Of a stretch of 43,968 nucleotides of DNA, positions 7,185-34,536 are shown one piece after another. Under the pieces are notes generated by a model that saw only the letters and a list, made by a program, of their open reading frames with translations, was not told where the DNA came from and did no database searches. The DNA is from an uncultured Candidatus Saccharibacteria bacterium (GTDB lineage Bacteria; Patescibacteriota; Minisyncoccia; Minisyncoccales; Staskawiczbacteraceae): contig CAYZNK010000002.1 of NCBI GenBank assembly GCA_964479955.1, positions 222,955-266,922 of the forward strand, read 5' to 3'. The translations under genes were made by a program, and so were the position numbers. The first letter of the stretch is position 1. Each line of letters starts with the position of its first letter.

Positions 7185-8897
7185 TTATTCGTAGTCTGGC
7201 GGAATTTGCCAGTAATTAATCATATACTTTGCCAAATCCTTAAATATTGGTACAGCAGACAAAGATGATGTTGAAACTTTTGGATTGTCCAGTTTTATCA
7301 ATGCCAAAAATTGCGGATTATATGCCGGCCCAAATCCTATGAAGCTTTGAATTGTTTTGTCTTTTTCATATCCTTTTTTATTCTTTAGCGCAACTTGAGC
7401 TGTTCCGGTTTTTCCGGCAAAATAATAGCCCGGTATTTTTGCAGCTTTATTAAATCCATTATCAACAACACTAACCAGCATTGAGGTCAATTTAGATGAT
7501 GTTTCTTTTGATATAACCTGCTGAGATGTCCCCTGCTTAACTGTTTTTTCTTCCATACCCGAAAATGTTTTTTCAACTATATACGGCTTTACGGTTTTAC
7601 CGCCATTGGCTATTGCGCAAAAAGCGCTGACAATCTGTATGGGAGTAAGTTCAACTCCCTGGCCAAAAGAAGATGTGGCAAAATTTATATCAGGCGCATT
7701 GTTCATAAGCCCGTCATTGCGGGAATAAATTTCACCTTGCAAATCAATCCCTGTTTTTTCAGTAAAGCCAAAATTTTTAATATATTTTAAATATGTATCG
7801 TGCGAAACCTGTTCTTCTGCAAAAACAGCGCCCGTATTAATTGAGTTTTCCAGCACTTGAGTCATTGTCTGCCCTCCATAAACTTTATTGTCAAAATTGT
7901 GTATTGTGTCTTTGTCAAAAGACACGGTTCCTGTATCAATATAGACAGTTTCGGGAGTTATTCTGCCCTCATTTATTGCTATTGCCATTGTAAAGGGCTT
8001 CATTATGGACCCTGGTTCAAAAAGCTTCTGGATTGAGTCATTTTGAAAAACATCCATATCCTCTACTTTTGAATATTCGTTCAAATCAAAAAAAGGAAAA
8101 TCTGCCATTGCTAAAATTTTTCCGGTGTCGGGCTTTATTATAATTATCTGGCCGCTATCAATATCAAACTTTTCCTTTGCCTCAGCCAACAAAGATTCTG
8201 CTTTAAATTGTATATTGTAATCAATTGTAAGATAGATATCAGAACCATCAAGCGATATTTCGTCATCTTGAGAAAAAATAAGTTCCAACCCTTTTTTCTC
8301 TTCCCTTATGCCGTCTTTTCCCTTTAAAATATCTTCATAATGGCCCTCTATTCCGTATTGCCCTGTATTTTCTCCCCCAAAAAATCCCAGAATATTTGAC
8401 GCCAATTTACCTTGCGGATAATATCTCTTATGATTAAGCTCCCATTGCAAGCCTACCAGCCCAAGCTCTTTTATTTTCTCCAGTTCCTCTTGCGATGCGT
8501 CTTTTTTTATTACAACATAAGAACTCTGGCCGTTGAGCAATGAAATAATACTGTCTTTTTCAATACCAAGGCTTTGGCTTAATGCTTGAGAGAAAACATC
8601 TATATCTTCTATTTCATCTATAAAGGCTGATATTGTCCATTCGTCCTTGTTTATTGCCAGGCTTTTAAAGTCATCTGACAAACTTCCTTTGGTTCGCTGG
8701 CTGTTGCCGCAGTAAATTTGCCCCCTTTGGCCCATTATGCTGGTAAGCCCTACCTGCTGGCCTAAAGCCTGCGCCTGATAAAGCTTGTGTTTTACCACCT
8801 GTAAATAAAACAAGCGGCCGATAATGCCTGCTCCAAATGCCAAAATAAAAAATAAAATTATTTTAGCCTGCCAGTTCCCGATATTTTTCTTTTCCAT
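7185..8897 (-). CDS. ftsI: Class B penicillin-binding protein (FtsI/PBP2-like)
   Basis: N-terminal TM, RG.I, R.YP.G...ILGF, SxxK (EPGSIMKP), SxN (SINTG), KTG (AGKTGTAQ); downstream of rsmH/ftsL. Confidence 0.9.
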   Translation of the reverse strand: MEKKNIGNWQAKIILFFILAFGAGIIGRLFYLQVVKHKLYQAQALGQQVGLTSIMGQRGQIYCGNSQRTKGSLSDDFKSLAINKDEWTISAFIDEIEDIDVFSQALSQSLGIEKDSIISLLNGQSSYVVIKKDASQEELEKIKELGLVGLQWELNHKRYYPQGKLASNILGFFGGENTGQYGIEGHYEDILKGKDGIREEKKGLELIFSQDDEISLDGSDIYLTIDYNIQFKAESLLAEAKEKFDIDSGQIIIIKPDTGKILAMADFPFFDLNEYSKVEDMDVFQNDSIQKLFEPGSIMKPFTMAIAINEGRITPETVYIDTGTVSFDKDTIHNFDNKVYGGQTMTQVLENSINTGAVFAEEQVSHDTYLKYIKNFGFTEKTGIDLQGEIYSRNDGLMNNAPDINFATSSFGQGVELTPIQIVSAFCAIANGGKTVKPYIVEKTFSGMEEKTVKQGTSQQVISKETSSKLTSMLVSVVDNGFNKAAKIPGYYFAGKTGTAQVALKNKKGYEKDKTIQSFIGFGPAYNPQFLALIKLDNPKVSTSSLSAVPIFKDLAKYMINYWQIPPDYE

Positions 8898-8923
8898 TTT
8901 CCGATTATTTTTATGTTTTGGAA

Positions 8924-9283
8924 TTATTTGGCGTTTGCCAAGGAATTATCCAGAATCTGAATATATTTTATTGAAACTGTTTTTTGAAATTCAGAATCTT
9001 CTATTCTGGACAAGATTTTCTCAAGATAATTGTTTTCAGCGAAAAGAACTTCCAGTTTTTTGTTTTCTTTTGAAATTTCTTCTATTGATGATTTACTTTT
9101 TGAAATTGAATATGTCCCTGACGTTAAAATGTTGATTTGATATATATAGAAAAACAACAGCAAAGAACACAAGATAAATCCGGCAAAGCAAACCTTATCC
9201 CAATTTTCAGAAAAGCATCCGAGGGATTTAGAGCTGTCGCGCATATTTTTAGTTATGTAACGGACCAATGCTATTGTTGTCAT
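8924..9283 (-). CDS. FtsL-like bitopic protein
   Basis: Single TM plus coiled coil, at the canonical ftsL position between rsmH and ftsI; sequence not diagnostic. Confidence 0.65.
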   Translation of the reverse strand: MTTIALVRYITKNMRDSSKSLGCFSENWDKVCFAGFILCSLLLFFYIYQINILTSGTYSISKSKSSIEEISKENKKLEVLFAENNYLEKILSRIEDSEFQKTVSIKYIQILDNSLANAK

Positions 9284-9300
9284 TTTTTTTGTTTTTATTT

Positions 9301-10194
9301 TTATAATTTTATTGCCGCCCTCAGCTTTGCAGACCTTGCCCTTGGATTTTTTCTGATTTCATTCTGGCTTGCAATTACGGGCTTTTTGGTTAATATTTTT
9401 ATTATTTTTTCTTTTGACTCTTGGTTAAAAAAATTTTTAACAATCCTGTCCTCCAAAGAATGGAAAGATATTGCAACTATTTTTCCTCCCTGTGGCAAGA
9501 TAGAAATTATTTGAGGCAGAACTTTTCCCAAATTTTCAAGTTCATGGTTTACAGCTATCCTCAAGGCCTGAAATGTTCTTGTCGCACAATGAATTTTTCC
9601 GTTCTGTAATTTTTTAGGAATTGCCTCTTTTATTATTCCTGTTAATTGAAGTGTGCTTTTAATTCTTCCTTTTTTCCTTTCCTCTGTTATTTTCTCTGCA
9701 ATTTTTCTTGCAAATTTTTCTTCTCCGTATTCTTTAATTATTTTTTCTATATCCTCTGTTTTCCATTCGTTTAAAATTTTTTCAGCTGTCAAAAAGTTAA
9801 ACCTGTCGTCATATCTCATGTCCAAACCTTGGTCAAGCTGGAAAGAAAAACCTTTATGGGATTTATCTAAATGTACAGAAGACATTCCCAAATCAAGCAA
9901 AACCCCGTCTATTGGCCCAAATCCTATTCTCTCAACTATTTCTTTTAAATTCACATATGAACTATTTTCCAAAATTAGCCTGTCTTTATAATCTGCCATT
10001 AGCCATTTACCGCTTTCTATCTGCGCAGGGTCCCAATCAATTCCCAAAACTTTTCCCGAAGGCGCACTTTGGTCTAATATCAATTTTGTGTGCCCTCCCT
10101 CGCCCATTGTACAATCAATAAAATTTTTATTATCAGACGGGCTCAAATATTCTAAAACTTTTTCTTTTAGGACCGGGGTGTGGATGTTTTCCAT
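9301..10194 (-). CDS. rsmH: 16S rRNA m4C1402 methyltransferase
   Basis: H.PVL, DCT.GEGGHT, DLGMSS, LDMR, ATRTFQALRIAVNHEL, SFHSLEDRIVK, NPRARSAKLR. Start set to the ATG at 10194. Confidence 0.96.
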   Translation of the reverse strand: MENIHTPVLKEKVLEYLSPSDNKNFIDCTMGEGGHTKLILDQSAPSGKVLGIDWDPAQIESGKWLMADYKDRLILENSSYVNLKEIVERIGFGPIDGVLLDLGMSSVHLDKSHKGFSFQLDQGLDMRYDDRFNFLTAEKILNEWKTEDIEKIIKEYGEEKFARKIAEKITEERKKGRIKSTLQLTGIIKEAIPKKLQNGKIHCATRTFQALRIAVNHELENLGKVLPQIISILPQGGKIVAISFHSLEDRIVKNFFNQESKEKIIKILTKKPVIASQNEIRKNPRARSAKLRAAIKL

Positions 10195-24692: not shown

Positions 24693-25907
24693 TTATATAT
24701 TCCCCATGACTGAATACAGCGGGCCTATTATGGAAACTGCGAACACGCCGACAATCGTACCTAAAATAATTATCAAGATCGGTTCGATTAATGTGGATAT
24801 TGCATATGCATCATTCAAAACTTCTTCTTCATAAAAATCAGCCATTGTTTTTAAAATTACAGATGTTTTCCCTGTTTCTTCACCCATTTCAACCATTTCA
24901 ATTGTTCCATAGGAAAAAAATTTCTGATATGGCTTTAAACTGCTAAAAAGTTTTTCACCCTTTTCAACTCTTTTGGCAGATTCTTTAAGAGCTTGCTTAA
25001 AGTAAAAATTACTTACATTTCCCCCTGTTATTTCAAGAGATTTTATCAACGGAACCCCGGAAGCCATAAGAGAACTTAGCGACCTTGCAAAAGCAGCCGA
25101 GTTGCTTTTAACAATCAAAGAAGATATAAGCGGAATTTTAAGAGAAACCGTATCCATTAAAAACCTTCCTGTTTTTGTCCTTATTGAGAAAATAAATGCA
25201 AAAACTACAGCGACTAGCGCTATTATTAAAATATACCAATAAGTCATAAAAAAATCCCCCATTCCCAGTATTATTTTTGTTGTTATGGGCAGATCTGCGT
25301 TTAGACTCTGGAAAAGTTTTTTTATCTTTGGAAAAACAAATATTAAGATTAACAATCCAACTGCTATCATTGTCAAAATAAGAACAGCAGGATAAATCAG
25401 CGCTTTCTGAACGCTGGACTTCATTTCTTTTTCCCTTTTAAGTTGCAGCGACAAAACTTTTAAAACCTCCTCCAATGTTCCAGACTCTTCTCCCGACTGT
25501 ATCATATTAATATAAAGGTCTGAAAAAATATCAGGATATTTTTTCAAAGAATCAGAAAGATTTTTCCCTTCCCCTATTTCTCTAGATATATCCAGCAAGG
25601 CATATTTCATTTTTCTGTTTTTTGCCTGGGATGCCAGAATGGAAAATCCTCTAACCAAAGGAAGGCCTGTTGCGATTATTATCCAAAGATTTCTTGTCAT
25701 AACTATCTTTTCTGTTATAGAAACCTTTCCTGAAAAAACAGTCCACTTGAAAATTCTTTTTTTGTTCTCCGTTTTAATTTGAGCATCAATTAAAATCAGC
25801 CCTCTCTTTTTTAGATTCTGCGAAAGCTCCCTAAGGCTTTCTGATTCTAAAGTTCCTGATTCTGTTTTTCCGCTTAATGATTTGGCTTTATAAATAAAAA
25901 TCGACAT
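24693..25907 (-). CDS. pilC: Type IV pilus platform protein (GspF/PilC)
   Basis: F.YKA, GLPL...F, G..LSDSLKKYP..F, GEESGTL, YPA, GEETG...L. Confidence 0.93.
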   Translation of the reverse strand: MSIFIYKAKSLSGKTESGTLESESLRELSQNLKKRGLILIDAQIKTENKKRIFKWTVFSGKVSITEKIVMTRNLWIIIATGLPLVRGFSILASQAKNRKMKYALLDISREIGEGKNLSDSLKKYPDIFSDLYINMIQSGEESGTLEEVLKVLSLQLKREKEMKSSVQKALIYPAVLILTMIAVGLLILIFVFPKIKKLFQSLNADLPITTKIILGMGDFFMTYWYILIIALVAVVFAFIFSIRTKTGRFLMDTVSLKIPLISSLIVKSNSAAFARSLSSLMASGVPLIKSLEITGGNVSNFYFKQALKESAKRVEKGEKLFSSLKPYQKFFSYGTIEMVEMGEETGKTSVILKTMADFYEEEVLNDAYAISTLIEPILIIILGTIVGVFAVSIIGPLYSVMGNI

Positions 25908-25921
25908 AGTCTTAAATTTAA

Positions 25922-27673
25922 TTAATCCATAATGACCCTAAGCACCTCTTCTATCGAAGTTAATCCCTGCGCTGCTTTTACAAGCCCGTCTTCAACCATT
26001 GTCCTCATTCCGTTTTTCAGAGCCTGATTTTTAATTTCTATTGTGGGGGATTTTTTTATTATTAAATTTTTCATATCTTCATCAACTAATAAAATTTCAA
26101 AAATTCCGATTCTTCCTTTGTATCCGTCCGGAGAGTCAACAGAGCTTTTTGGCCTGTAAAATTCTATATCTTGGGGCTTGCCGGACTGCTTTAATATTTT
26201 TTCCTGCTTCAATATATTGACAACCCTGTCAATATCGCAATATTTTTTTAAATTTTCCAATTCCTCTGATTTCAGCTTGTATTTGGTCTTTTCTCCGTGA
26301 AACTTTCTGACCAGCCTCTGGGCTATAACTATGTTAAGGGTCGAAGAAAGTAAAAAAGGCTCTACCCCCATATCAACAAGCCTGGGTATGGCTCCCGAGG
26401 ACTCTGTTGTATGAAGGGTTGATAAAACTAAATGCCCTGTCAAAGCAGCATTAATAGCAAGCTCAGCAGTCTCCCTATCTCTTATTTCTCCAACCATTAT
26501 GATATTGGGGTCTTGTCTCAACAACGACCTTAATCCTGAGGCAAATGTCAGATTAATCTTCTCGTTAATCTGAGTTTGATTTACTCTCGGCATCCTGTAT
26601 TCAACAGGGTCTTCCACAGAAGATATATTTACTTTTGGAGTGTTTAAAATCCCCATCATTGCATAAAGAGTGGTTGTTTTACCAGAGCCAGTAGGACCTG
26701 TAATTAATATCATTCCATTGGTTTTTACCAGATTGTCCTTAATCTTCTGTAATTCTCCTCCGTTTAAACCTATGTCTTCCAATGTCAAGGCTTTCGTATT
26801 TTCCGCTAAAAGCCTCATAACGATTTTTTCTCCGTTCAAGACAGGTAGAACAGAAACTCTTATAGAATATTTGAAATCTTCAGTTTCAATTTTAAACCTG
26901 CCGTCTTGGGGTAGCCTGTGTTCGTCAAGCTTTAAATTAGAAAGCACTTTTATCCTTGCAACAATTCCCGGAGCCATATCTATTGGCAAAGAAATAGCAT
27001 CATTTAAAATTCCATCAATTCTGTACCGGACTATAACTTCCTGCTCTAATGGCTCTATATGGACATCAGAAGCTCTTTGTAAAATAGCATGCTTTAATAA
27101 TGTATCTACAACTTTTATAATTGAAACTTCTTCAGCGGCTTTTTTAAGGTCTCGTTTTTTTTCTGTATCTTCATCCTCTTTAATATGCTTTATGTCTCCT
27201 GTGCCCATGATGTCTCCAAACTCTGTCTTTATATTTTCCTGATATTGAGCCAAGGCGTTTTTTATTCCCTCTGAAGTTGTAAGTCTGGATAATATTTTTA
27301 AAGATGAATTTATTTTTTTAATGGATTCTATTGTCCTTAAGTCTTGAGGGTCCAACATCGCAACTTCAAGGTCATTATCCTTTTTTCTGAACGCGACAAT
27401 ATTATGAGACCTTGCAATTGATTCAGGAATTATCTTTAAAACATCAGGATTAATAATTTCGTCCGATAGATCAATAAAAGGAATACCCAAAAGATATGCC
27501 TCTATTTTTGTCAGCTCTTTTTCCGTAATAAAATTTTTTGAAACCAAAATTTCGCCTATATCCTTGCCGGTTTTGGCGCTTTCCTCGGCAACCTTATCAA
27601 ATTTTTTCTCTTCAATAAGCCCTGCCTCTAAAATAAACTTTTTTAATTTTCCCAATTCAACTTTCATAGGCAT
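25922..27673 (-). CDS. pilB: Type IV pilus assembly ATPase (GspE/PilB)
   Basis: ASDVHIEP, RLPQDGRF, GPTGSGKTTTLY, EDPVEY, LRQDPNIIMVGEIRD, TGHLVLSTLHT. Confidence 0.95.
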   Translation of the reverse strand: MPMKVELGKLKKFILEAGLIEEKKFDKVAEESAKTGKDIGEILVSKNFITEKELTKIEAYLLGIPFIDLSDEIINPDVLKIIPESIARSHNIVAFRKKDNDLEVAMLDPQDLRTIESIKKINSSLKILSRLTTSEGIKNALAQYQENIKTEFGDIMGTGDIKHIKEDEDTEKKRDLKKAAEEVSIIKVVDTLLKHAILQRASDVHIEPLEQEVIVRYRIDGILNDAISLPIDMAPGIVARIKVLSNLKLDEHRLPQDGRFKIETEDFKYSIRVSVLPVLNGEKIVMRLLAENTKALTLEDIGLNGGELQKIKDNLVKTNGMILITGPTGSGKTTTLYAMMGILNTPKVNISSVEDPVEYRMPRVNQTQINEKINLTFASGLRSLLRQDPNIIMVGEIRDRETAELAINAALTGHLVLSTLHTTESSGAIPRLVDMGVEPFLLSSTLNIVIAQRLVRKFHGEKTKYKLKSEELENLKKYCDIDRVVNILKQEKILKQSGKPQDIEFYRPKSSVDSPDGYKGRIGIFEILLVDEDMKNLIIKKSPTIEIKNQALKNGMRTMVEDGLVKAAQGLTSIEEVLRVIMD

Positions 27674-27747: not shown

Positions 27748-27816
27748 CCCAAAGCAAATAAAAACAACGGGGTGAATCCGCTGCTTCTATTCATCTAATT
27801 ATCTAAAAATGAAAAA

Positions 27817-28200
27817 TCAGGCTATGCATTCTTTAATTTTTTGCGCAATATCAGAAATTGGATGTTGGGCTTTTATAAAATAATCTTTCGCTCCTAAAGA
27901 TAGCGCCTTTTTTATATTCTCATTTTCTGCCAAGTTAGATAAAATAATAACGGGTATATTTTTTAGCAATTCATTCTTTTTAAAATCTTCCAAAACGTCT
28001 AGGCCTCCTTTTTTGGGCAAAACTAAATCCAAAAGAACTACATCAGGTTTTGAATCTATCGCAACAGACAAAGCATCTTCCCCGTCTTTTGCCGCAAAAA
28101 CGTTATATCCCGCATCTTCAAGCTCATTTTTAACAATACTAGATAATGTCTCCTCATCTTCCACCAATAAAACTTTTATATTATTCATTGTTGATTCCAT
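27817..28200 (-). CDS. Single-domain CheY-like response regulator
   Basis: VLLVEDE, VVLLDLVLPKKGG, PVIILSN, GAKDYFIK; no output domain; start at 28200 or 28188. Confidence 0.92.
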   Translation of the reverse strand: MESTMNNIKVLLVEDEETLSSIVKNELEDAGYNVFAAKDGEDALSVAIDSKPDVVLLDLVLPKKGGLDVLEDFKKNELLKNIPVIILSNLAENENIKKALSLGAKDYFIKAQHPISDIAQKIKECIA

Positions 28201-28266
28201 TGTTAATTTTATTCTTTAAATTTTATATATTATAATATCACTTTTTTATTTACTTGCAATACCAAA

Positions 28267-30282
28267 TCACTTGATTGGCAAAACAACAAAAAATGTTGTT
28301 CCCTCGTTTATTTTTGATTTAAACCAAATTTTTCCTCCCATGCTTTCTGTTGTCATTTTAGCCGCATAAAGACCCAGGCCATTGCCATCTGGCGTGTGAG
28401 GAAAAGCATTTTCAGCCCTGAATAATTTTTGGAAAATTCTGTTTTGCTGGTTTTCCGGGATACCTATTCCAGTATCAGATATTTCAAATAATAACTCTTT
28501 TTCATTTTTATTTATTTTAACTCCAACACTACCCTTTTCGGGCGTATATTTTACGGCATTAGATATAATATTCTGAAATATTAACCTTACCAAATCCGGG
28601 TCAACCGAAATTTCACCTATATTATCATCGCATTCAAATTTTAGTTTCTGCTTCCTTTTTTTAATATTAACCTCCTGCTCTATTATTATATCTTCAATAA
28701 GCTTCTTTATGTCTGTCGGGACTAAAGCGATTTTAAGTCTTCCAGCCTCAAGACGGGAAATATTAAGCATTATGTTTATCAATTTTATCATCCTTTCATT
28801 GCCACGATAAATCTGTTCAACATATTCTTTTTGTTTTGAAGATATTTTTCCGGCTTTTCCAGCAAGTAAAATTTCAGCATACCATTTTATAGCAGTAAGC
28901 GGAGTTCGCAATTGATGAGAAGCCAAAGAAACAAATTCTGATTTCGATTTATCAATCTGCCTTTCAACAGTCATATCGCGAAAAACATCAACAGCCCCTG
29001 TTATTTGCCCATTGATAATAACGGGGGTCACTATAATCGCCGCCGGAAATTTTGTGTTATCGCTCCTGACATAAGAATAAATTGTACCGTGCGACCCTTC
29101 AGTTGTTGATGTTATTATCTTTTTTCCGGAAGACAAGGCAATATTCAATGGGTTTTTCTCTTTTAAAACAGCTTCCCCTTTTTCTGTTTCTATTCTTAAA
29201 ATTTCGTCGTGGGGTTTACCCGTGGGGTTTTTCCCCTTGAGGCGCAACATCTCTTCGGCTGCCCTATTTATAAACATTATCTTTCCAAAATTATCTATGG
29301 CCACAACCCCGTCTCCAATTGAGCCTAATAGTGCTTCGTCTTCAATTCTTATAGCATCTATTTGATTTTTGGCTTTCTTCTCCGACTCATATGCCCTATT
29401 TATATCTTCTCTATATTTTATTTCTCTATTTACTCCTTTAATTAAGGAAATGCCAAAAAAGATGAAAACAATTAAAATCCCTGTCCTGATAAGCTGATAA
29501 TACAGGTTTTCAGTAAATATCATTACGTCCATCAGAAGAAGCAGACCTATCAATCCAACCAAAATTGTAGTAAGCACAACCTTAATCCCAAAAAGCTCCC
29601 TTTTAACAATTGCATAAAATGTAAACCCAAGCAAAATAATTGAAGAGTAGTCGCCTATCCAGTATAATCTGTATATTTTTAAAATTAGAGGGAAAGAAAT
29701 ATTAAAAATTCCGTTTGCAAGATAAAATATGGAAATTCCAACCAGTAAATATTCAATTTTTATTTTTTCCTCTTTTGGGCATTTTACATAAGCTTTTATC
29801 AAAAGATATAATGGAGAGACCATAAATAAAAATATTACAGCCAAAAACGGAATCATCCCTGAGCCGTATGTTATGGTAAGTTGAGATTCAACAAACCTTA
29901 TGCCCTTAATAATAAAGCTGCTGAACCCCGATAAAAATGTGGCTATAACTCCTAAAACAAGAATAATCCAACTCCAAACGCGATATTTTTTTTCTTGTTC
30001 CAAATAAGCCACTACAAAGAAATAAAGCAAGACAAAAAGCGGCGGAGTTGCAAACCATGCTATCCTAAGAAAGAGCATGCCCAAATCAGGGTTTGCTTTA
30101 CCAAAAACCCTTGCCATATAAGCAAAATTAACCCAAAGAGCCATAAAGAATATTTTGCCCAAAAATATTCTATTTATCTTGCCTTTTGGATTATTGCGCC
30201 ACATCATAACAGCCAACCACAATCCAAATATATCAATAAGGGCTATAAGGATTTGATTATAAAAAGGCAATATTTCAATCAT
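28267..30282 (-). CDS. Membrane sensor histidine kinase (multi-TM HisKA_7TM-like input, PAS, HisKA, HATPase)
   Basis: About 9 N-terminal TM helices, PAS (SIGDGVVAID...FIN.AAEEM), H-box SLASHQLRTPLT, N-box NAVKYT, G boxes DTGIGIP and GNGLGLY. Start set at ATG 30282, overlapping the upstream TGA. Confidence 0.93.
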   Translation of the reverse strand: MIEILPFYNQILIALIDIFGLWLAVMMWRNNPKGKINRIFLGKIFFMALWVNFAYMARVFGKANPDLGMLFLRIAWFATPPLFVLLYFFVVAYLEQEKKYRVWSWIILVLGVIATFLSGFSSFIIKGIRFVESQLTITYGSGMIPFLAVIFLFMVSPLYLLIKAYVKCPKEEKIKIEYLLVGISIFYLANGIFNISFPLILKIYRLYWIGDYSSIILLGFTFYAIVKRELFGIKVVLTTILVGLIGLLLLMDVMIFTENLYYQLIRTGILIVFIFFGISLIKGVNREIKYREDINRAYESEKKAKNQIDAIRIEDEALLGSIGDGVVAIDNFGKIMFINRAAEEMLRLKGKNPTGKPHDEILRIETEKGEAVLKEKNPLNIALSSGKKIITSTTEGSHGTIYSYVRSDNTKFPAAIIVTPVIINGQITGAVDVFRDMTVERQIDKSKSEFVSLASHQLRTPLTAIKWYAEILLAGKAGKISSKQKEYVEQIYRGNERMIKLINIMLNISRLEAGRLKIALVPTDIKKLIEDIIIEQEVNIKKRKQKLKFECDDNIGEISVDPDLVRLIFQNIISNAVKYTPEKGSVGVKINKNEKELLFEISDTGIGIPENQQNRIFQKLFRAENAFPHTPDGNGLGLYAAKMTTESMGGKIWFKSKINEGTTFFVVLPIK

Positions 30283-31145
30283 ATTATTATTTGCCCCAAA
30301 TAAATTAGTATTCCCCAAAAAATAAACTCTCCGGCCTCAATAATAAATCCGTAGTATTTATTTTTTTGGACAAGAAGAATGCAATAAAGATTTAAAAACA
30401 GCACGGGGATCAAAAATAGAACCAATACCGTAAAAACAGAATATAAATAAGCTAAAACAGGAACTAAAACAGACACAACAACATCAAATATTGTAATAAA
30501 TTTTAGCGCCCGATCCCTACCCATTAAAATTGGAAAAGTAATTAGTCCCTCTTTGCCGTCTGTTTCTATATCTTTTACATCAAGAAAAGCTTGCATTGAC
30601 ATTGTTTTTAAGTACACAAACACAAACAATACTACGGCCGCAGTTATAGTTGAAACGGATTCCGGATAATATGAATAGTAAATAAAAGGGAAAAATACCA
30701 TTAAGGAAAAAAATGCCGAAACATATAAGTTTTTAAAAAGAGGGATATATTTAGTCAATTTTTTAAATACGGTTGTATATAAAACTCCGAGTAAAAAAAT
30801 AATTCCTACAAATATTAATGGAAGAATTCCCCTGAAATAGACCAAGCTTAAAAACATTATTAATATTACCCAAAAAAGTATTGTCGGTATCTTTGATAAA
30901 TATGTTTTTAAATGCTCTGTTCTTTCCTTGTTTGTCAAATAATCAGAATTTATTTCTTTATATCTGTTATATAAATATATAGGATAAAAAGCTAAATACC
31001 CCACAAACAAAATATCCCAACTTAAACTGAGACCCAATAAGACAGAAGAAACAAAAACAATGCTTATGGCCCCAAAGCACTGCAAGTGCCCGCCCCATAT
31101 AAATTCTTTGCCCGCTAATTTTAAAATATTTTTTGTAGAAAACAC
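30279..31145 (-). CDS. UbiA-family membrane prenyltransferase
   Basis: About 8 TM; first motif YLYNRYKEINSD..N.ER, Y....K..P..KN, second motif DVKDIETD.KEG..T.PILMG; GTG start. Confidence 0.82.
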   Translation of the reverse strand: MFSTKNILKLAGKEFIWGGHLQCFGAISIVFVSSVLLGLSLSWDILFVGYLAFYPIYLYNRYKEINSDYLTNKERTEHLKTYLSKIPTILFWVILIMFLSLVYFRGILPLIFVGIIFLLGVLYTTVFKKLTKYIPLFKNLYVSAFFSLMVFFPFIYYSYYPESVSTITAAVVLFVFVYLKTMSMQAFLDVKDIETDGKEGLITFPILMGRDRALKFITIFDVVVSVLVPVLAYLYSVFTVLVLFLIPVLFLNLYCILLVQKNKYYGFIIEAGEFIFWGILIYLGQIII

Positions 31146-31158
31146 TTTTTTAAAAAAA

Positions 31159-31602
31159 TTATTCTCCCATTATTTGAATATTAATTTTTCTGTCCCTTTC
31201 CCTGTCCAGCTCAACAAACAGAATCACCTGCCATCTGCCAAGTTGGAGTTCTCCGTCCGATATATTAAGGGCAACTGACGTAGGCAAGTTTATTGCCTTG
31301 CAGTGACTGTGTCCGTTTCTGCATTCATTGTCGCACATATTTACAGTTCTTCGAGTAAAATCATCATGATTGTATTCTGTTGTTTTTGGAACAATTCTGT
31401 TTAAATAAATTTTTATGTCTTCTAAAAGCAGGGGCTCTTCTTCCTGAATCAAAACCGCCGCCGTTGTATGCATGCTTTGTATATTTACAATTCCGTTTTT
31501 TATTCCGGTATCCGCAATAAAAGATTTCACTTGGTCTGTTATATTAATTATATCAAGCTCTTTCTTTGTTTTTATTTCTATTGTCTTTGAATTTATTTTC
31601 AT
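31159..31602 (-). CDS. yjbQ: YjbQ/UPF0047 family protein
   Basis: I.NG.VNI...HTTAA, Y.HD, NGHSH, L.LG.WQ.I.FVELD..R.RK. Confidence 0.9.
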   Translation of the reverse strand: MKINSKTIEIKTKKELDIINITDQVKSFIADTGIKNGIVNIQSMHTTAAVLIQEEEPLLLEDIKIYLNRIVPKTTEYNHDDFTRRTVNMCDNECRNGHSHCKAINLPTSVALNISDGELQLGRWQVILFVELDRERDRKINIQIMGE

Positions 31603-31644
31603 ATGTTTTATTCTTTAAGATATTTTTATAAATAAAAAATAAAA

Positions 31645-33189
31645 TTATTTTTCTCTTTGGTTTACAATATCAACCAGATTGTTTAACATCAAGTTCCATT
31701 TATTTTCCGGCAAGTCTTTTAGGCTGTCTTTTGCTTTTCTAAAAAAAACTTCTGCTAAGTGTTTCGCTTTTACTTCGGCATCTGTTTTCTTTATAATTTC
31801 AATCGCTTTTTTAACATCTTTTTCGTTTATAATTTTTTTCTGGATTATTTTCAAAAAATCTTTTCTTTGGCTTTCCGAAAAGCTTTCAAATGCAATACAA
31901 ATAACTATGTTCCCCAGTTTTCTCTCTTTTACGTCTTTACCTATCTCTTTCTTAAATTTACTCTCATCTCCAAAAATATCAAGCAGGTCATCTTGGATCT
32001 GAAAAGCCATTCCCAAATTAAAACCGTATTTTCTGAGAGCTTCTAAGTGATTGTCTTTTCCGTCTGCGCAAATTCCTCCTATTTTACAGCACATCCCAAA
32101 TAAAAACGCTGTTTTCTTTTCAATCATCTTATAATAATTTTCCTTGCCAACTTTCAAATACCTGTTTTCAATGACATAAGGCTCATCTTCCCTGCCCCCC
32201 TGCTCAAAAAGGACATCATAAAGCTCTCCATCAAATATTGTTTTTAAAGTTTCAGAAAAAATTTGAGAAATTGCAACCGGATATTTTGAAAAATTAGCGG
32301 CTGAAAAAGCCGTTGCCGTATAGTCAGCTCCTGCGCATTCTGCAACTGAAACTCCAAACTTTTTCCAGACAGTTGGCTTCCCTCTTCTTAAAATTCCATG
32401 GTCTATTATGTCGTCTATAATCAAAGTGTAATTGTGCAAAATTTCAATTCCCGCGGCAGGATAAATTGCATCTTCAATTTTACCGCCCAGCAATCTGCAT
32501 GAAATAATCGCAAGCGCTGGCCTTAATTTTTTCCCGCCTGTTGCAACCTGGTATTTTATTATTTTATGAAATTTTTTGTCAGTATTATCTGTTAACAATT
32601 TATTTACCGCCGGCTCAACTTTTTTTGCCAGAGATTCCAAAAAAATATTTATTTTTTGCTTTTCCTGGGCCTCCCTTTTTTTAATTTTAATATATCTTTT
32701 AAATCCTATTTTCAGCCATGGAGTATATTCTTTTGGATGAATTTTGAATTCTGACAGCAATTTGTCCTCATCAATCCATTTGTAACCCGCAACTTCTTTT
32801 GAATCAGGATTTGGCTTGCCATCATATTGGCCAACTAAAACTGCGCAGACCTCATTTTCAAATCCTGCGTTTTTGTATTTTCTCTTATACACAAATTTAT
32901 CAACTTGCCTTAAAGGGACCTCAAACCCAAGTTCTTCTTTCATTCTTCTCTCGCCTGCTCTCTCATAATCTTCGCCCTCCCTGGGATGGCTACAGCATGA
33001 ATTTGCCCAATACAATGGCCAAAGAGGCTTGAGCTTGCTTCTTTGCTGAATTAAAAGCTGCCCTTTGTTGTTAAATATGTAAACTGAAAAAGCGCGGTGC
33101 AAAAGCCCCTCTTTATGAACACTTTCCTTATCCTTAAATCCCAGCACTTCGTCATTTTTATTAACCAGCAAAAGATTTTTGTCAGTCAT
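31645..33189 (-). CDS. Fusion: type 1 isopentenyl-diphosphate isomerase + trans-isoprenyl diphosphate synthase
   Basis: N-terminal HRAFS.YIF, QQRS..K..WP..W.NSCCSHP, ENEVC, TPW; C-terminal GGKKLRP, FARM YTLIIDDIIDH...RRG, KKTA, SARM FQIQDDLLD, GKDVKERK. Confidence 0.92.
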   Translation of the reverse strand: MTDKNLLLVNKNDEVLGFKDKESVHKEGLLHRAFSVYIFNNKGQLLIQQRSKLKPLWPLYWANSCCSHPREGEDYERAGERRMKEELGFEVPLRQVDKFVYKRKYKNAGFENEVCAVLVGQYDGKPNPDSKEVAGYKWIDEDKLLSEFKIHPKEYTPWLKIGFKRYIKIKKREAQEKQKINIFLESLAKKVEPAVNKLLTDNTDKKFHKIIKYQVATGGKKLRPALAIISCRLLGGKIEDAIYPAAGIEILHNYTLIIDDIIDHGILRRGKPTVWKKFGVSVAECAGADYTATAFSAANFSKYPVAISQIFSETLKTIFDGELYDVLFEQGGREDEPYVIENRYLKVGKENYYKMIEKKTAFLFGMCCKIGGICADGKDNHLEALRKYGFNLGMAFQIQDDLLDIFGDESKFKKEIGKDVKERKLGNIVICIAFESFSESQRKDFLKIIQKKIINEKDVKKAIEIIKKTDAEVKAKHLAEVFFRKAKDSLKDLPENKWNLMLNNLVDIVNQREK

Positions 33190-33283
33190 TTTTTTATGGT
33201 TATTATATTATAAACAAAAAATAATCAAATATCAAAATGATATCTGATTATTCAATCTCCATATCAATTTGTCGCACAATAGA

Positions 33284-33445
33284 TTAACGCTTTGTTTCTT
33301 TATGCGGGGTGTGTTTTTTGCAGGCTTTGCAAAATTTTTTCAGTTCTATTTTTTTCTCAGCAACTTTTTTGGTTTTGTTTGTAAAATAATTTGTTGTTTT
33401 GCAAACGCTGCAAGCCATTTTTGTTAGTGATTTTTTTGTTGCCAT
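33284..33445 (-). CDS. rpmG: 50S ribosomal protein L33 (zinc-binding type), not in the ORF track
   Basis: MATKKSLTKMACSVCKTTNYFTNKTKKVAEKKIELKKFCKACKKHTPHKETKR (53 aa). Confidence 0.93.
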   Translation of the reverse strand: MATKKSLTKMACSVCKTTNYFTNKTKKVAEKKIELKKFCKACKKHTPHKETKR

Positions 33446-33524
33446 GATTTTGAACGAAGTGAATAAATCATCCTGAGCCTAAAGGCGAAGGATAAACCTT
33501 TATTTTTATCGTATTTTTATTATG

Positions 33525-33597
33525 AGCCGATGCGCAGATTTGCACTGCGGACCTCATTCTTACCAAGAATGTGCTCTGCTACCTGAGCTACATCGGC
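33525..33597 (-). tRNA. tRNA-Thr (GGT)
   Basis: GCCGATG/CATCGGC acceptor, CATTC-TT GGT AA-GAATG; T loop reads TGCAAAT. Confidence 0.93.
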
Positions 33598-33633: not shown

Positions 33634-33719
33634 TGGTGGGCAGGGAGGGACTTGCACCCCCGAAGACCAAAGGTCGCTAGATTTACAGTCTAGTGCGTTA
33701 GCTGCTCCGCCACCTGCCC
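33634..33719 (-). tRNA. tRNA-Tyr (GTA), CCA encoded
   Basis: GGGCAGG/CCTGCCC acceptor + ACCA, CTAGA-CT GTA AA-TCTAG, long variable arm, T loop TGCAAGT. Confidence 0.93.
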
Positions 33720-33754: not shown

Positions 33755-34471
33755 TTATTCAATGATTTTTCCGTGCTGTTTTTTCCACTCGTTAATTTTT
33801 TTATGGTCTCCTGAAAGCAAAACTTTGGGAACCTTCCAATTTACCCCTTTTCCAGGAGAAAAAATTTCCGGCCTTGTGTATTGGGCATATTCTAAAAACC
33901 CTCCTGATTTTGTAACTCTTTCTTTCAACAACTGAGGCTTTCCCAAAACTCCGGGAACCAGCCTTGAAACAGACTCAATAACAATCATTGCCGGCAATTC
34001 TCCGCCCATTAAGTCATAGTCTCCAATTGAAATTTCCATATCCGCAATTTCTCTCGCTACTCTTTCGTCAACTCCTTCATATCTTCCGCAAATAAAAATT
34101 ATTTGGTCAGCTTTTGCCAATTTGTATGCCAATTTTTGGTCAAATTTTTCCCCCCTAGGAGTAAATAATATAACTTTCGTTTTTCGTTTTGGGACTTGGG
34201 ACTTAGGGCTTGGTTGGGATTTGGAATTTGGGATTTGAAATTTTTTTAAAGCTGATACAGCTTTAAAAATAGGTTCTACTTTTAAAACCATTCCCAATCC
34301 CCCGCCAAACGGCCTGTCATCAACTGTTTTATGCTGGTCTTTGGTCCATTTTCTCAAATTATGGACATTCACTTTTATAAATCTTTTTTTCTGCGCTCGC
34401 GCAATCAAAGACTCAGCCAAATATGACTTAAAAATTTCCGGGAAAATTGTAATGACATCAAACTTAATCAT
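33755..34471 (-). CDS. trmD: tRNA (guanine-N1)-methyltransferase with in-frame repeat insertion
   Basis: FDVITIFPE, VDDRPFGGG.GMV, ICGRYEGVDERV, SIGDYDL.GGELPAM, EY.QYTRP, VP.VLLSGDH. Start set at ATG 34471. Confidence 0.96.
   Translation of the reverse strand: MIKFDVITIFPEIFKSYLAESLIARAQKKRFIKVNVHNLRKWTKDQHKTVDDRPFGGGLGMVLKVEPIFKAVSALKKFQIPNSKSQPSPKSQVPKRKTKVILFTPRGEKFDQKLAYKLAKADQIIFICGRYEGVDERVAREIADMEISIGDYDLMGGELPAMIVIESVSRLVPGVLGKPQLLKERVTKSGGFLEYAQYTRPEIFSPGKGVNWKVPKVLLSGDHKKINEWKKQHGKIIE
34189..34241. repeat. Heptamer tandem-repeat element inside trmD
   Basis: TTGGGAC TTGGGAC TTAGGGC TTGG TTGGGAT TTGGAAT TTGGGAT TTGAAAT. Confidence 0.88.
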
Positions 34472-34499
34472 ATATTTATATATAATATCATATTTTAAA

Positions 34500-34536
34500 A
34501 TGAAAACCGCGCCTTTCGGCGCGATCTTCATTTTTT
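34500..34536 (-). terminator. Hairpin between khpA and trmD
   Basis: CGCGCC-TTTC-GGCGCG core with imperfect ATGAA/TTCAT extension; T tail weak. Confidence 0.45.

Follow-up and report, generated by a model that had tools for sequence, protein, structure and literature searches.

Gene organization of the locus

The window analysed here, the whole stretch of 43,968 nucleotides (nt) from an uncultured Candidatus Saccharibacteria bacterium, contains a series of five genes in which a UbiA-family intramembrane enzyme is encoded directly ahead of a sensor histidine kinase. The source genome (G000) is 0.70 Mb in size and 99% complete. Translations of the open reading frames (ORFs) of the window were scanned with Pfam and NCBIfam profiles at their curated cut-offs. 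An earlier note, made by reading the sequence, had described the same five genes, and all five ORFs are present on the minus strand where it had placed them, with domains that are matched by profiles. The first of them (31645..33189) encodes a fusion of 514 amino acids (aa) between an isopentenyl diphosphate (IPP) isomerase (IDI) and a short-chain trans-prenyl diphosphate synthase. It is followed by a gene for a YjbQ/UPF0047 protein of 147 aa (31159..31602; TIGR00149, 112.8 bits against a cut-off of 67.75) and by the gene for a divergent UbiA-superfamily intramembrane enzyme of 288 aa (30279..31145). The latter scores 53.9 bits against PF01040, for which the cut-off is 34.2, and 50.3 bits in a whole-genome scan, where it was the sole UbiA-family gene of the genome. 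The kinase, of 671 aa (28267..30282), belongs to the HisKA_7TM family (PF16927, 36.7 bits against 28.6) and consists of a seven-transmembrane (7TM) bundle at residues 1-290 and a PAS domain at residues ~316-438, followed by HisKA (64.9 bits) and HATPase_c (89.4 bits). The last gene (27817..28200) encodes a single-domain receiver, a CheY-like response regulator of 127 aa with Response_reg as its sole domain.

The genes are closely packed, as the note had reported. The UbiA stop codon TGA overlaps the kinase ATG within an ATGA at 30282-30279, and yjbQ is separated by 13 nt from UbiA, which starts with GTG. The receiver gene lies 66 nt past the kinase gene. By pattern match only, a promoter-like site (33207..33235, minus strand; TTGATA-17-TATAAT, 11/12 in a consensus scan) lies ~18 nt 5' of the IDI-synthase gene and a terminator-like hairpin with a T-run (27755..27793, minus strand) lies 24 nt past the stop codon of the regulator. 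This hairpin is the sole intergenic terminator-like one that the pattern scan gave on the minus strand.

Linkage of UbiA genes to a clade of 7TM kinases

From ~1.2 to 37.6 kb of the window almost every gene is on the minus strand, and because nearly the whole of this ~36 kb stretch reads on one strand, the shared strand of the five genes is uninformative by itself. A UbiA homologue turned up in two out of 61 related genomes. All 25 of the same genus lacked it, that is, the cassette is accessory and not core genome content. The earlier note had doubted a housekeeping role, and such a role is indeed unlikely, since sister genomes without the cassette still keep UppS. The one other relative with UbiA (G049), from another family, has an IDI-synthase, a second IDI, YjbQ, UbiA, a 7TM kinase and a receiver between different flanks, and its UbiA-kinase junction is an ATGA overlap as in the window. 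UbiA followed by the kinase was also found in metagenome contig loci (L004, L007 and L008).

A scan of species-representative genomes gave 46 UbiA loci, mainly from Patescibacteria with a few from archaea. The genome samples comprise one genome per species, many of them fragmented metagenome-assembled genomes (MAGs), and the genes of surveyed loci were called by a simple longest-ORF script. In 39 of the 45 other non-redundant loci UbiA is followed, as the next gene in the same direction, by one for a homologous 7TM kinase, with gaps of -49 to +18 nt in all of them and a 4-nt overlap in 20. A polyprenyl synthase gene is present in 24 of the 45, a receiver gene in 19 and YjbQ in five. A gene-neighbourhood survey was what the earlier note had suggested as a check, and in this survey the UbiA-kinase adjacency is not unique to one genome but recurs in dozens of independent loci. 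Among the exceptions, a geranylgeranyl-reductase-like (GGR-like) flavoprotein gene and a terpene synthase-like (TS-like) gene separate UbiA from the kinase in L044 and a CMAS-like methyltransferase gene does so in L048; the others are two archaeal loci, one Calditrichaeota locus and one locus with a methyltransferase gene next.

For a survey from the kinase side, a profile built from 36 UbiA-linked 7TM domains was run against 401 genomes sampled evenly across the class. The scores were bimodal, with 26 matches at or above 224 bits and the rest at or below 157 bits, and about half of the 401 genomes fell in the low group. All high scorers, 37 low scorers and four loci found earlier were then compared. 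In the high-scoring clade the gene directly upstream of the kinase is UbiA in 16 loci, a class I TS-like gene in eight and neither in one, out of 25. A UbiA gene, a TS-like gene or a prenyl synthase gene was found beside the kinase in none of 39 low-group 7TM kinase loci. Because the enzyme neighbour is present in 24/25 loci of the linked clade versus 0/39 loci of generic 7TM kinases (Fisher p = 1e-16), the coupling of UbiA and kinase across genomes is far above chance. In a tree of the 7TM domains the enzyme-linked kinases form one clade, which is split from the generic kinases at a support of 99.

These counts bear on two further ways of accounting for the locus: that the two genes adjoin by accident in a genome packed densely on one strand, or that UbiA is a non-catalytic membrane subunit of the kinase. 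An accident would be in keeping with window genes that nearly all lie on one strand, but not with a linkage that is seen at dozens of loci whose flanks are unrelated and that is missing from the controls. Membrane partners encoded beside kinases have precedents in LiaF-LiaS and YycHI-WalK; against such a role stand the metal- and diphosphate-binding residues of the enzyme (D68, R75, K128, K138, D189, D192 and D196), whose conservation among 146 representatives of the UbiA clade is 97-100%, and the dedicated prenyl-diphosphate synthase that goes with the UbiA-kinase pair. We regard both explanations as highly improbable. By its residue conservation the window UbiA appears to be an active, diphosphate-binding enzyme that depends on metal.

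Terpene synthase-like genes in the place of UbiA

The TS-like proteins encoded ahead of the kinase in eight loci resemble class I terpene synthases. One of them (P0008) matches Terpene_syn_C_2 of Pfam at 39 bits, above the cut-off. The seven others form one family, for five of which the match to the same model is just under the cut-off. Its DDxxD and N-x-x-S-T-W-E-R-E (NxxSTWERE) motifs are invariant, and such metal motifs, which follow the patterns DDxxD and (N,D)Dxx(S,T)xxxE, together with an alpha-helical fold are those of class I enzymes. An AlphaFold model (pLDDT 84, pTM 0.85) searched with Foldseek gave terpene synthases as its top 35 matches, at a TM score of ~0.6, with prenyl synthases further down; its best matches in the PDB include tolypothrichol, 5-epi-aristolochene, aristolochene and abietadiene synthases. 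A profile search of the PDB with the TS-like family gave zero matches. On metagenome contigs 28 of the 32 close TS-like homologues with downstream room directly precede a 7TM kinase gene, and in L187 and L191 a TS-like gene and UbiA both lie ahead of the kinase. A distant GC-rich and apparently haloarchaeal branch of TS-like proteins is kinase-linked in 0 of 14 cases.

The two kinds of enzyme occupy the same place in otherwise similar operons. UbiA>kinase(~760 aa)>synthase(357 aa) in one operon corresponds to TS>kinase(~760 aa)>synthase(357 aa) in another, a GAF domain being confirmed in one of the ~760-aa kinases (L029), and the IDI-synthase>YjbQ>UbiA>kinase>receiver order of the window corresponds to synthase+IDI>YjbQ>TS>kinase>receiver in L088. 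The kinase tree has at least three changes of partner, from UbiA to TS or the reverse, on well-supported branches. YjbQ accompanies the prenyl synthase in ~7 module loci, with either UbiA or the TS-like enzyme downstream; the earlier note had counted it among the module genes, and its presence in a minority of loci does not bear out a place in the core.

As ionising a prenyl diphosphate and releasing a terpene is all that a soluble class I synthase can do, UbiA is likely to carry out the same chemistry. The repeated substitution of TS for UbiA is in our view the strongest argument for UbiA as a putative terpene synthase. It favours a terpene cyclase-like enzyme, one of the options that the earlier note had raised, over prenyl transfer.

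Motifs of the UbiA enzyme and the case for a prenyltransferase

The canonical UbiA motifs are NDxxDxxxD and DxxxD. In the window UbiA the second is present in an extended form, D189-x-K-D192-x3-D196, and the first is a variant, N60-R-x-x-E64-x3-D68. Among the 146 family representatives motif I reads (N/D)(R/H/Y)xx(E/D/G)xxxD, so that its middle residue is E in the window UbiA and G in 18 members of the family. In UbiA-type terpene synthases, compared with prenyltransferases, the middle Asp of motif I is missing and motif II has three Asp residues, DxxDxxxD, the full motifs being Nxxx(G/A)xxxD for the first and QDxxDxxxD for the second (PMC9835599). Motif II of the UbiA clade fits DxxDxxxD, but has L or F in place of the preceding Q. 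The three-Asp motif II and the variable middle residue of motif I point to a UbiA-type terpene synthase, which is suggestive and not decisive. A PDB profile search with the UbiA clade gave a single marginal match, to chlorophyll synthase (E ~0.01), around motif II. The clade is rare, with seven clusters at 90% identity in a word-indexed search and, in an exhaustive search with E <= 1e-30, 345 at 50% identity.

An alternative is that UbiA is a true prenyltransferase, making an archaeal-type ether lipid or a prenylated carrier, and that the kinase monitors membrane composition in the service of lipid homeostasis. The best NCBIfam matches of UbiA are indeed models of the digeranylgeranylglyceryl phosphate (DGGGP) synthase type, and the prenyl synthase domain is nearest to archaeal IdsA/geranylgeranyl diphosphate (GGPP) synthase models. 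GGR-like flavoproteins, of the kind that saturates archaeal lipids, are encoded upstream of UbiA in ~8-11 loci. All curated equivalog models are, however, far from reached, with scores of 35.3 against 296 (NF009521) and 45 against 269 (NF009523) for DGGGP synthase. The genome has no match to the PcrB-family geranylgeranylglyceryl phosphate (GGGP) synthase (PF01884). The models of quinone prenyltransferases are likewise missed (TIGR00751 menA, 18.1 against 102; NF004751, 19.2 against 264). The identities of a DGGGP synthase or other ether-lipid enzyme and of a quinone enzyme were dropped on these model scores and on the absent GGGP synthase; the earlier note's proposal of a signal required both roles to be disfavoured, as they now are. 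In addition, an essential lipid route would not be absent from sister genomes, as the cassette is, and UbiA has been replaced at least three times by soluble class I TS-like enzymes, which are incapable of prenylating a glycerol ether. We therefore consider a role in membrane-lipid homeostasis quite unlikely.

Tailoring-type genes, for GGR-like flavoproteins and a CMAS-like S-adenosylmethionine-dependent methyltransferase, lie inside some of the modules (L044:1247-3363, L048:7827-8669, L014:5832-6863 and L008:2471-3586). The GGR-like reductase and the CMAS-like methyltransferase are gene types typical of small-terpenoid clusters.

Prenyl synthase and the source of precursors

In the fusion protein a type-1 IDI domain of the NUDIX type (residues ~1-170) precedes a trans-prenyl synthase domain (residues ~180-514). 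The IDI domain scores 62.6 bits in Pfam and passes both models of type 1 IPP isomerase, with 161.6 bits against 127 for NF002995 and 133.3 against 105.8 for TIGR02150. The synthase domain scores 202.3 bits against polyprenyl_synt (PF00348). Its first aspartate-rich motif (FARM) is DDIID, the second (SARM) is DDLLD, and a Tyr is present at -5 from the FARM, as in short-chain enzymes. Nearly all prenyl synthases of the modules have Tyr or Phe five residues ahead of the FARM and are thus of the short-chain type. According to an Ohnuma-type chain-length rule, an aromatic residue at this position leads to C15-C20 products, and the Tyr of the window synthase predicts a product of this length. The exact chain length is only inferred, because no chain-length-specific equivalog model passes its cut-off for the window synthase in the NCBIfam scan.

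The isomerase and the synthase do not merely feed UppS. This explanation was ruled out because UppS, which is present in the window genome, was found in 23 of the 26 related genomes checked, yet the IDI-synthase fusion or prenyl synthase is missing from 24 of the 25 genomes of the same genus.

Neither a GHMP kinase nor IspH had a match in the source genome. The genome therefore has neither mevalonate kinase nor IspE, and as IspH is missing too it has neither the mevalonate (MVA) nor the methylerythritol phosphate (MEP) pathway, so that IPP or a precursor is needed from outside. The same holds more widely: among 27 module-bearing genomes, IspH is present in three, any GHMP kinase in six and neither in 20, and in G049 MEP genes lie a few kb away from the module. 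Most carriers of the module must import IPP or a precursor of it, presumably with a host as the source. An IDI at the head of the cassette would fit the use of imported IPP. This sharpens a puzzle in these bacteria, since UppS is kept, and here IDI and a prenyl synthase as well, yet there is no MVA or MEP pathway and the precursors must be imported.

The sensor domain of the linked kinases

An AlphaFold model of the 7TM domain (pLDDT 89.8) has seven helices, with a short beta-hairpin that separates the fourth from the fifth. Foldseek matched it only to the 7TM bundles of G-protein-coupled receptors (GPCRs), with a TM score of ~0.5 and E ~1e-3; we take this as a likeness of topology and not as evidence for homology. 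Six residues in the transmembrane helices, F53, Y87, N190, F193, Y212 and S213, are conserved specifically in the enzyme-linked clade (N190 in 100%, versus 2% in generic kinases). They are common to UbiA-linked and TS-linked kinases, which fits a putative intramembrane binding site shared by both. In 45 of 47 UbiA-linked kinases residue 211 (window 29650-29652, minus strand), within a conserved G-D/N-Y-S motif, is Asp; the seven TS-linked ones all have Asn.

Some loci depart from the usual arrangement. The kinase L090:5365-6936 is a basal branch of the enzyme-linked clade, and its locus has no UbiA or TS gene. Two genes away from it is a 7TM kinase of the generic clade (8487-9521), upstream of which a FeeM-like N-acyl amino acid synthase (PF21926, 36 bits) is encoded on the minus strand (L090:9604-10236). 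By its profile match the FeeM-like protein may be another synthase of a lipophilic signal near a 7TM kinase. In two loci an extra stand-alone 7TM domain without a kinase core is encoded just 5' of the enzyme gene (L071:2810-3757 and L083:448-1515).

A variable slot next to type IV pilus genes

Downstream of the five genes, 143 nt past the receiver gene, is a gene whose translation reads as a PilB/GspE-like ATPase of type IV pili or type II secretion systems (25922..27673), followed by a PilC/GspF-like gene (24693..25907), also named from reading its translation. Upstream are rpmG (L33; 33284..33445), tRNA-Thr (33524-33597), tRNA-Tyr (33634-33719) and, beyond the tRNA genes, trmD (33755-34531); rpmG and the tRNA genes are, like the pilus genes, on the minus strand. 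The TrmD protein has a low-complexity insert (…KSQPSPKSQVPKRK…) that is not in typical TrmD.

In genomes of the same genus the interval from trmD-tRNA-rpmG to pilB is a variable slot (loci L143-L150; window 27817-33445). A receiver gene lies directly 5' of pilB in five of the 11 same-genus relatives fetched. Upstream of the receiver the slot holds nothing more in G006, generic 7TM kinases in G012 and G013 and other kinases in G025; in G009, without an intervening receiver, pilB directly adjoins a generic 7TM kinase gene. The PilB proteins of the window genome and these relatives share 66-77% identity. The window regulator is 34-37% identical to the pilB-adjacent regulators of sister genomes and 37-43% identical to module regulators elsewhere. 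At 34-37% identity its orthology to the sister regulators was not upheld. From these comparisons it is evident that different sensor genes have replaced one another in the slot. The shared place of the receiver 5' of pilB, whatever the sensor, suggests weakly that type IV pili may be the target of the regulator, in which profile scans found no DNA-binding or other output domain.

Sensing or control of the enzyme

Genes of two-component systems often adjoin the operons that they control. It is therefore conceivable that the kinase senses some other cue, such as a host membrane component or the state of the envelope, and that the receiver switches the terpenoid pathway, the terpenoid being an output that acts on a host or a competitor. 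Distant relatives of the enzymes offer some support for wiring of this kind. One distant TS-like protein (L199:3551-4957) carries a fused receiver-like domain, which scores 27.8 bits for Response_reg, just below the cut-off, and the haloarchaeal TS-like homologues (L197 and L209 around 4000) adjoin Bat-type PAS-GAF-BAT-HTH regulators and HalOD1 proteins. In a Calditrichaeota MAG (L027:4378-8662) a member of the UbiA clade has a receiver-containing protein of 431 aa on one side and a sigma-54 activator on the other, with no 7TM kinase. In the window, however, the regulator is without a DNA-binding or output domain with which to switch a pathway, and the enzyme gene is 5' of the kinase gene, with translational coupling between the two, an arrangement that points to co-production rather than to control. 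With either enzyme partner, the kinases of the clade keep intramembrane residues of their own. We think it unlikely that the kinase only controls the enzyme, and an autoinduction loop, in which the kinase both senses the product and controls its synthesis, would unite the two readings and make both true.

Proposed mechanism

The five genes are one compact, self-contained accessory unit, found with different flanks across Patescibacteria, and probably serve to make and sense an isoprenoid. A synthase gene that adjoins a receptor gene across genomes is the mark of a quorum-sensing locus, and this arrangement is found here for the putative synthase and receptor. The reading that we prefer is that UbiA is a membrane terpene synthase acting on farnesyl diphosphate (FPP) or GGPP and that the 7TM bundle of the kinase senses its lipophilic product; we would put its probability at about 0.5. 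The prenyl synthase would turn externally obtained IPP into FPP or GGPP. UbiA would ionise the prenyl diphosphate and release a lipophilic C15-C20 terpenoid, with no transfer to an aromatic or glycerol acceptor. The terpenoid would enter the membrane and be bound within the GPCR-like seven-helix bundle, where F53, Y87, N190, F193, Y212 and S213 may line the site. Binding would alter autophosphorylation and phosphotransfer to the CheY-like regulator, which would act through protein-protein contact, here possibly on the adjacent type IV pilus machinery. The terpenoid may be a signal between cells, as a quorum or host signal, or simply a readout of the cell's own isoprenoid supply.

Several points weigh against this proposal. 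Motif I of the window UbiA, NRxxExxxD, departs both from that of canonical prenyltransferases and from the Nxxx(G/A)xxxD of known UbiA-type terpene synthases. With neither an MVA nor a MEP pathway, the genome's own genes do not account for a supply of IPP. The adjacency of the two genes fits both a kinase that senses the product and a kinase that controls the enzyme, and sequence cannot decide between them; the receiver fusion and the Bat-type neighbours of distant TS-like proteins show that the enzyme can be a signalling output. Residue 211 was considered as a specificity switch between UbiA and TS partners. As only three phylogenetically independent contrasts are available, of which two are concordant, its covariation with the enzyme is not significant, and we treat it as a lead only.

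A broader speculation is possible. Patescibacteria may have a terpenoid 'hormone' system in which a clade of GPCR-like 7TM kinases detects a self-made C15-C20 terpenoid, produced by interchangeable UbiA or class I synthases, and in which, for the genome studied here, a CheY-like output steers the adjacent type IV pilus. Because 20 of the 27 carriers are without any IPP pathway, the signal would also report on precursors derived from a host. We offer this extended scheme tentatively and as rather doubtful in its entirety. If true, such a hormone system would link host contact to pilus behaviour. The Patescibacteria, or candidate phyla radiation, are abundant and mainly uncultured episymbionts in which the sensing of partners is almost unexplored.

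Comparison with known systems

The kinase belongs to the same domain family as the generic HisKA_7TM kinases of Patescibacteria and archaea, which have the same 7TM-HisKA-HATPase architecture and occur in about half of the genomes of the class. It differs from them in its separate supported clade, its own transmembrane residues and its obligatory terpenoid-enzyme neighbour. The ligand of the HisKA_7TM family is unidentified (PMC5847659), and a full-text literature search found no proposed ligand for it. The same kind of search found no bacterial link between a terpene synthase or UbiA enzyme and a histidine kinase. If our reading is true, the locus would provide the first candidate ligand for this widespread sensor family, the first terpenoid-based two-component signalling in bacteria and a function for a UbiA clade of several hundred sequence clusters.

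Among UbiA-family enzymes, archaeal DGGGP synthase is the second-best curated model for the window UbiA and resembles it also in the GGPP synthase and GGR-like genes near some of the loci; the differences are scores far under the cut-off, the lack of a GGGP synthase and the exchange of UbiA for soluble TS-like enzymes. Fma-TC, EriG and Tps1A/Tps2A have in common with it the UbiA fold, a motif II with three Asp residues and a changed residue in the middle of motif I (PMC9835599), although motif I as a whole reads (N/D)(R/H/Y)xx(E/D/G)xxxD in the clade of the window UbiA. These enzymes ionise FPP or GGPP without a second substrate, and the displacement of UbiA by TS leads us to infer the same chemistry here. 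The characterised UbiA-type synthases that PMC9835599 names are fungal, are encoded in secondary-metabolite clusters and have no kinase partner, whereas the window UbiA has one.

The systems closest in logic come from quorum sensing, where in CqsA/CqsS of Vibrio and LqsA/LqsS of Legionella, as at the present locus, the gene for a small-molecule synthase adjoins that for a multi-transmembrane histidine kinase. In these systems the enzyme makes an autoinducer, and the polytopic kinases CqsS and LqsS have no large extracytoplasmic domain and perceive a hydrophobic ligand within the membrane. A regulator of unusual type belongs to the Legionella cluster as well. None of the parts are homologous to those described here, which differ in their predicted isoprenoid chemistry, HisKA_7TM bundle and receiver-only regulator. 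Our finding, as a predicted function, is the two-component logic of a ligand synthase and its receptor with new chemistry, in a new receptor clade and a new group of hosts.

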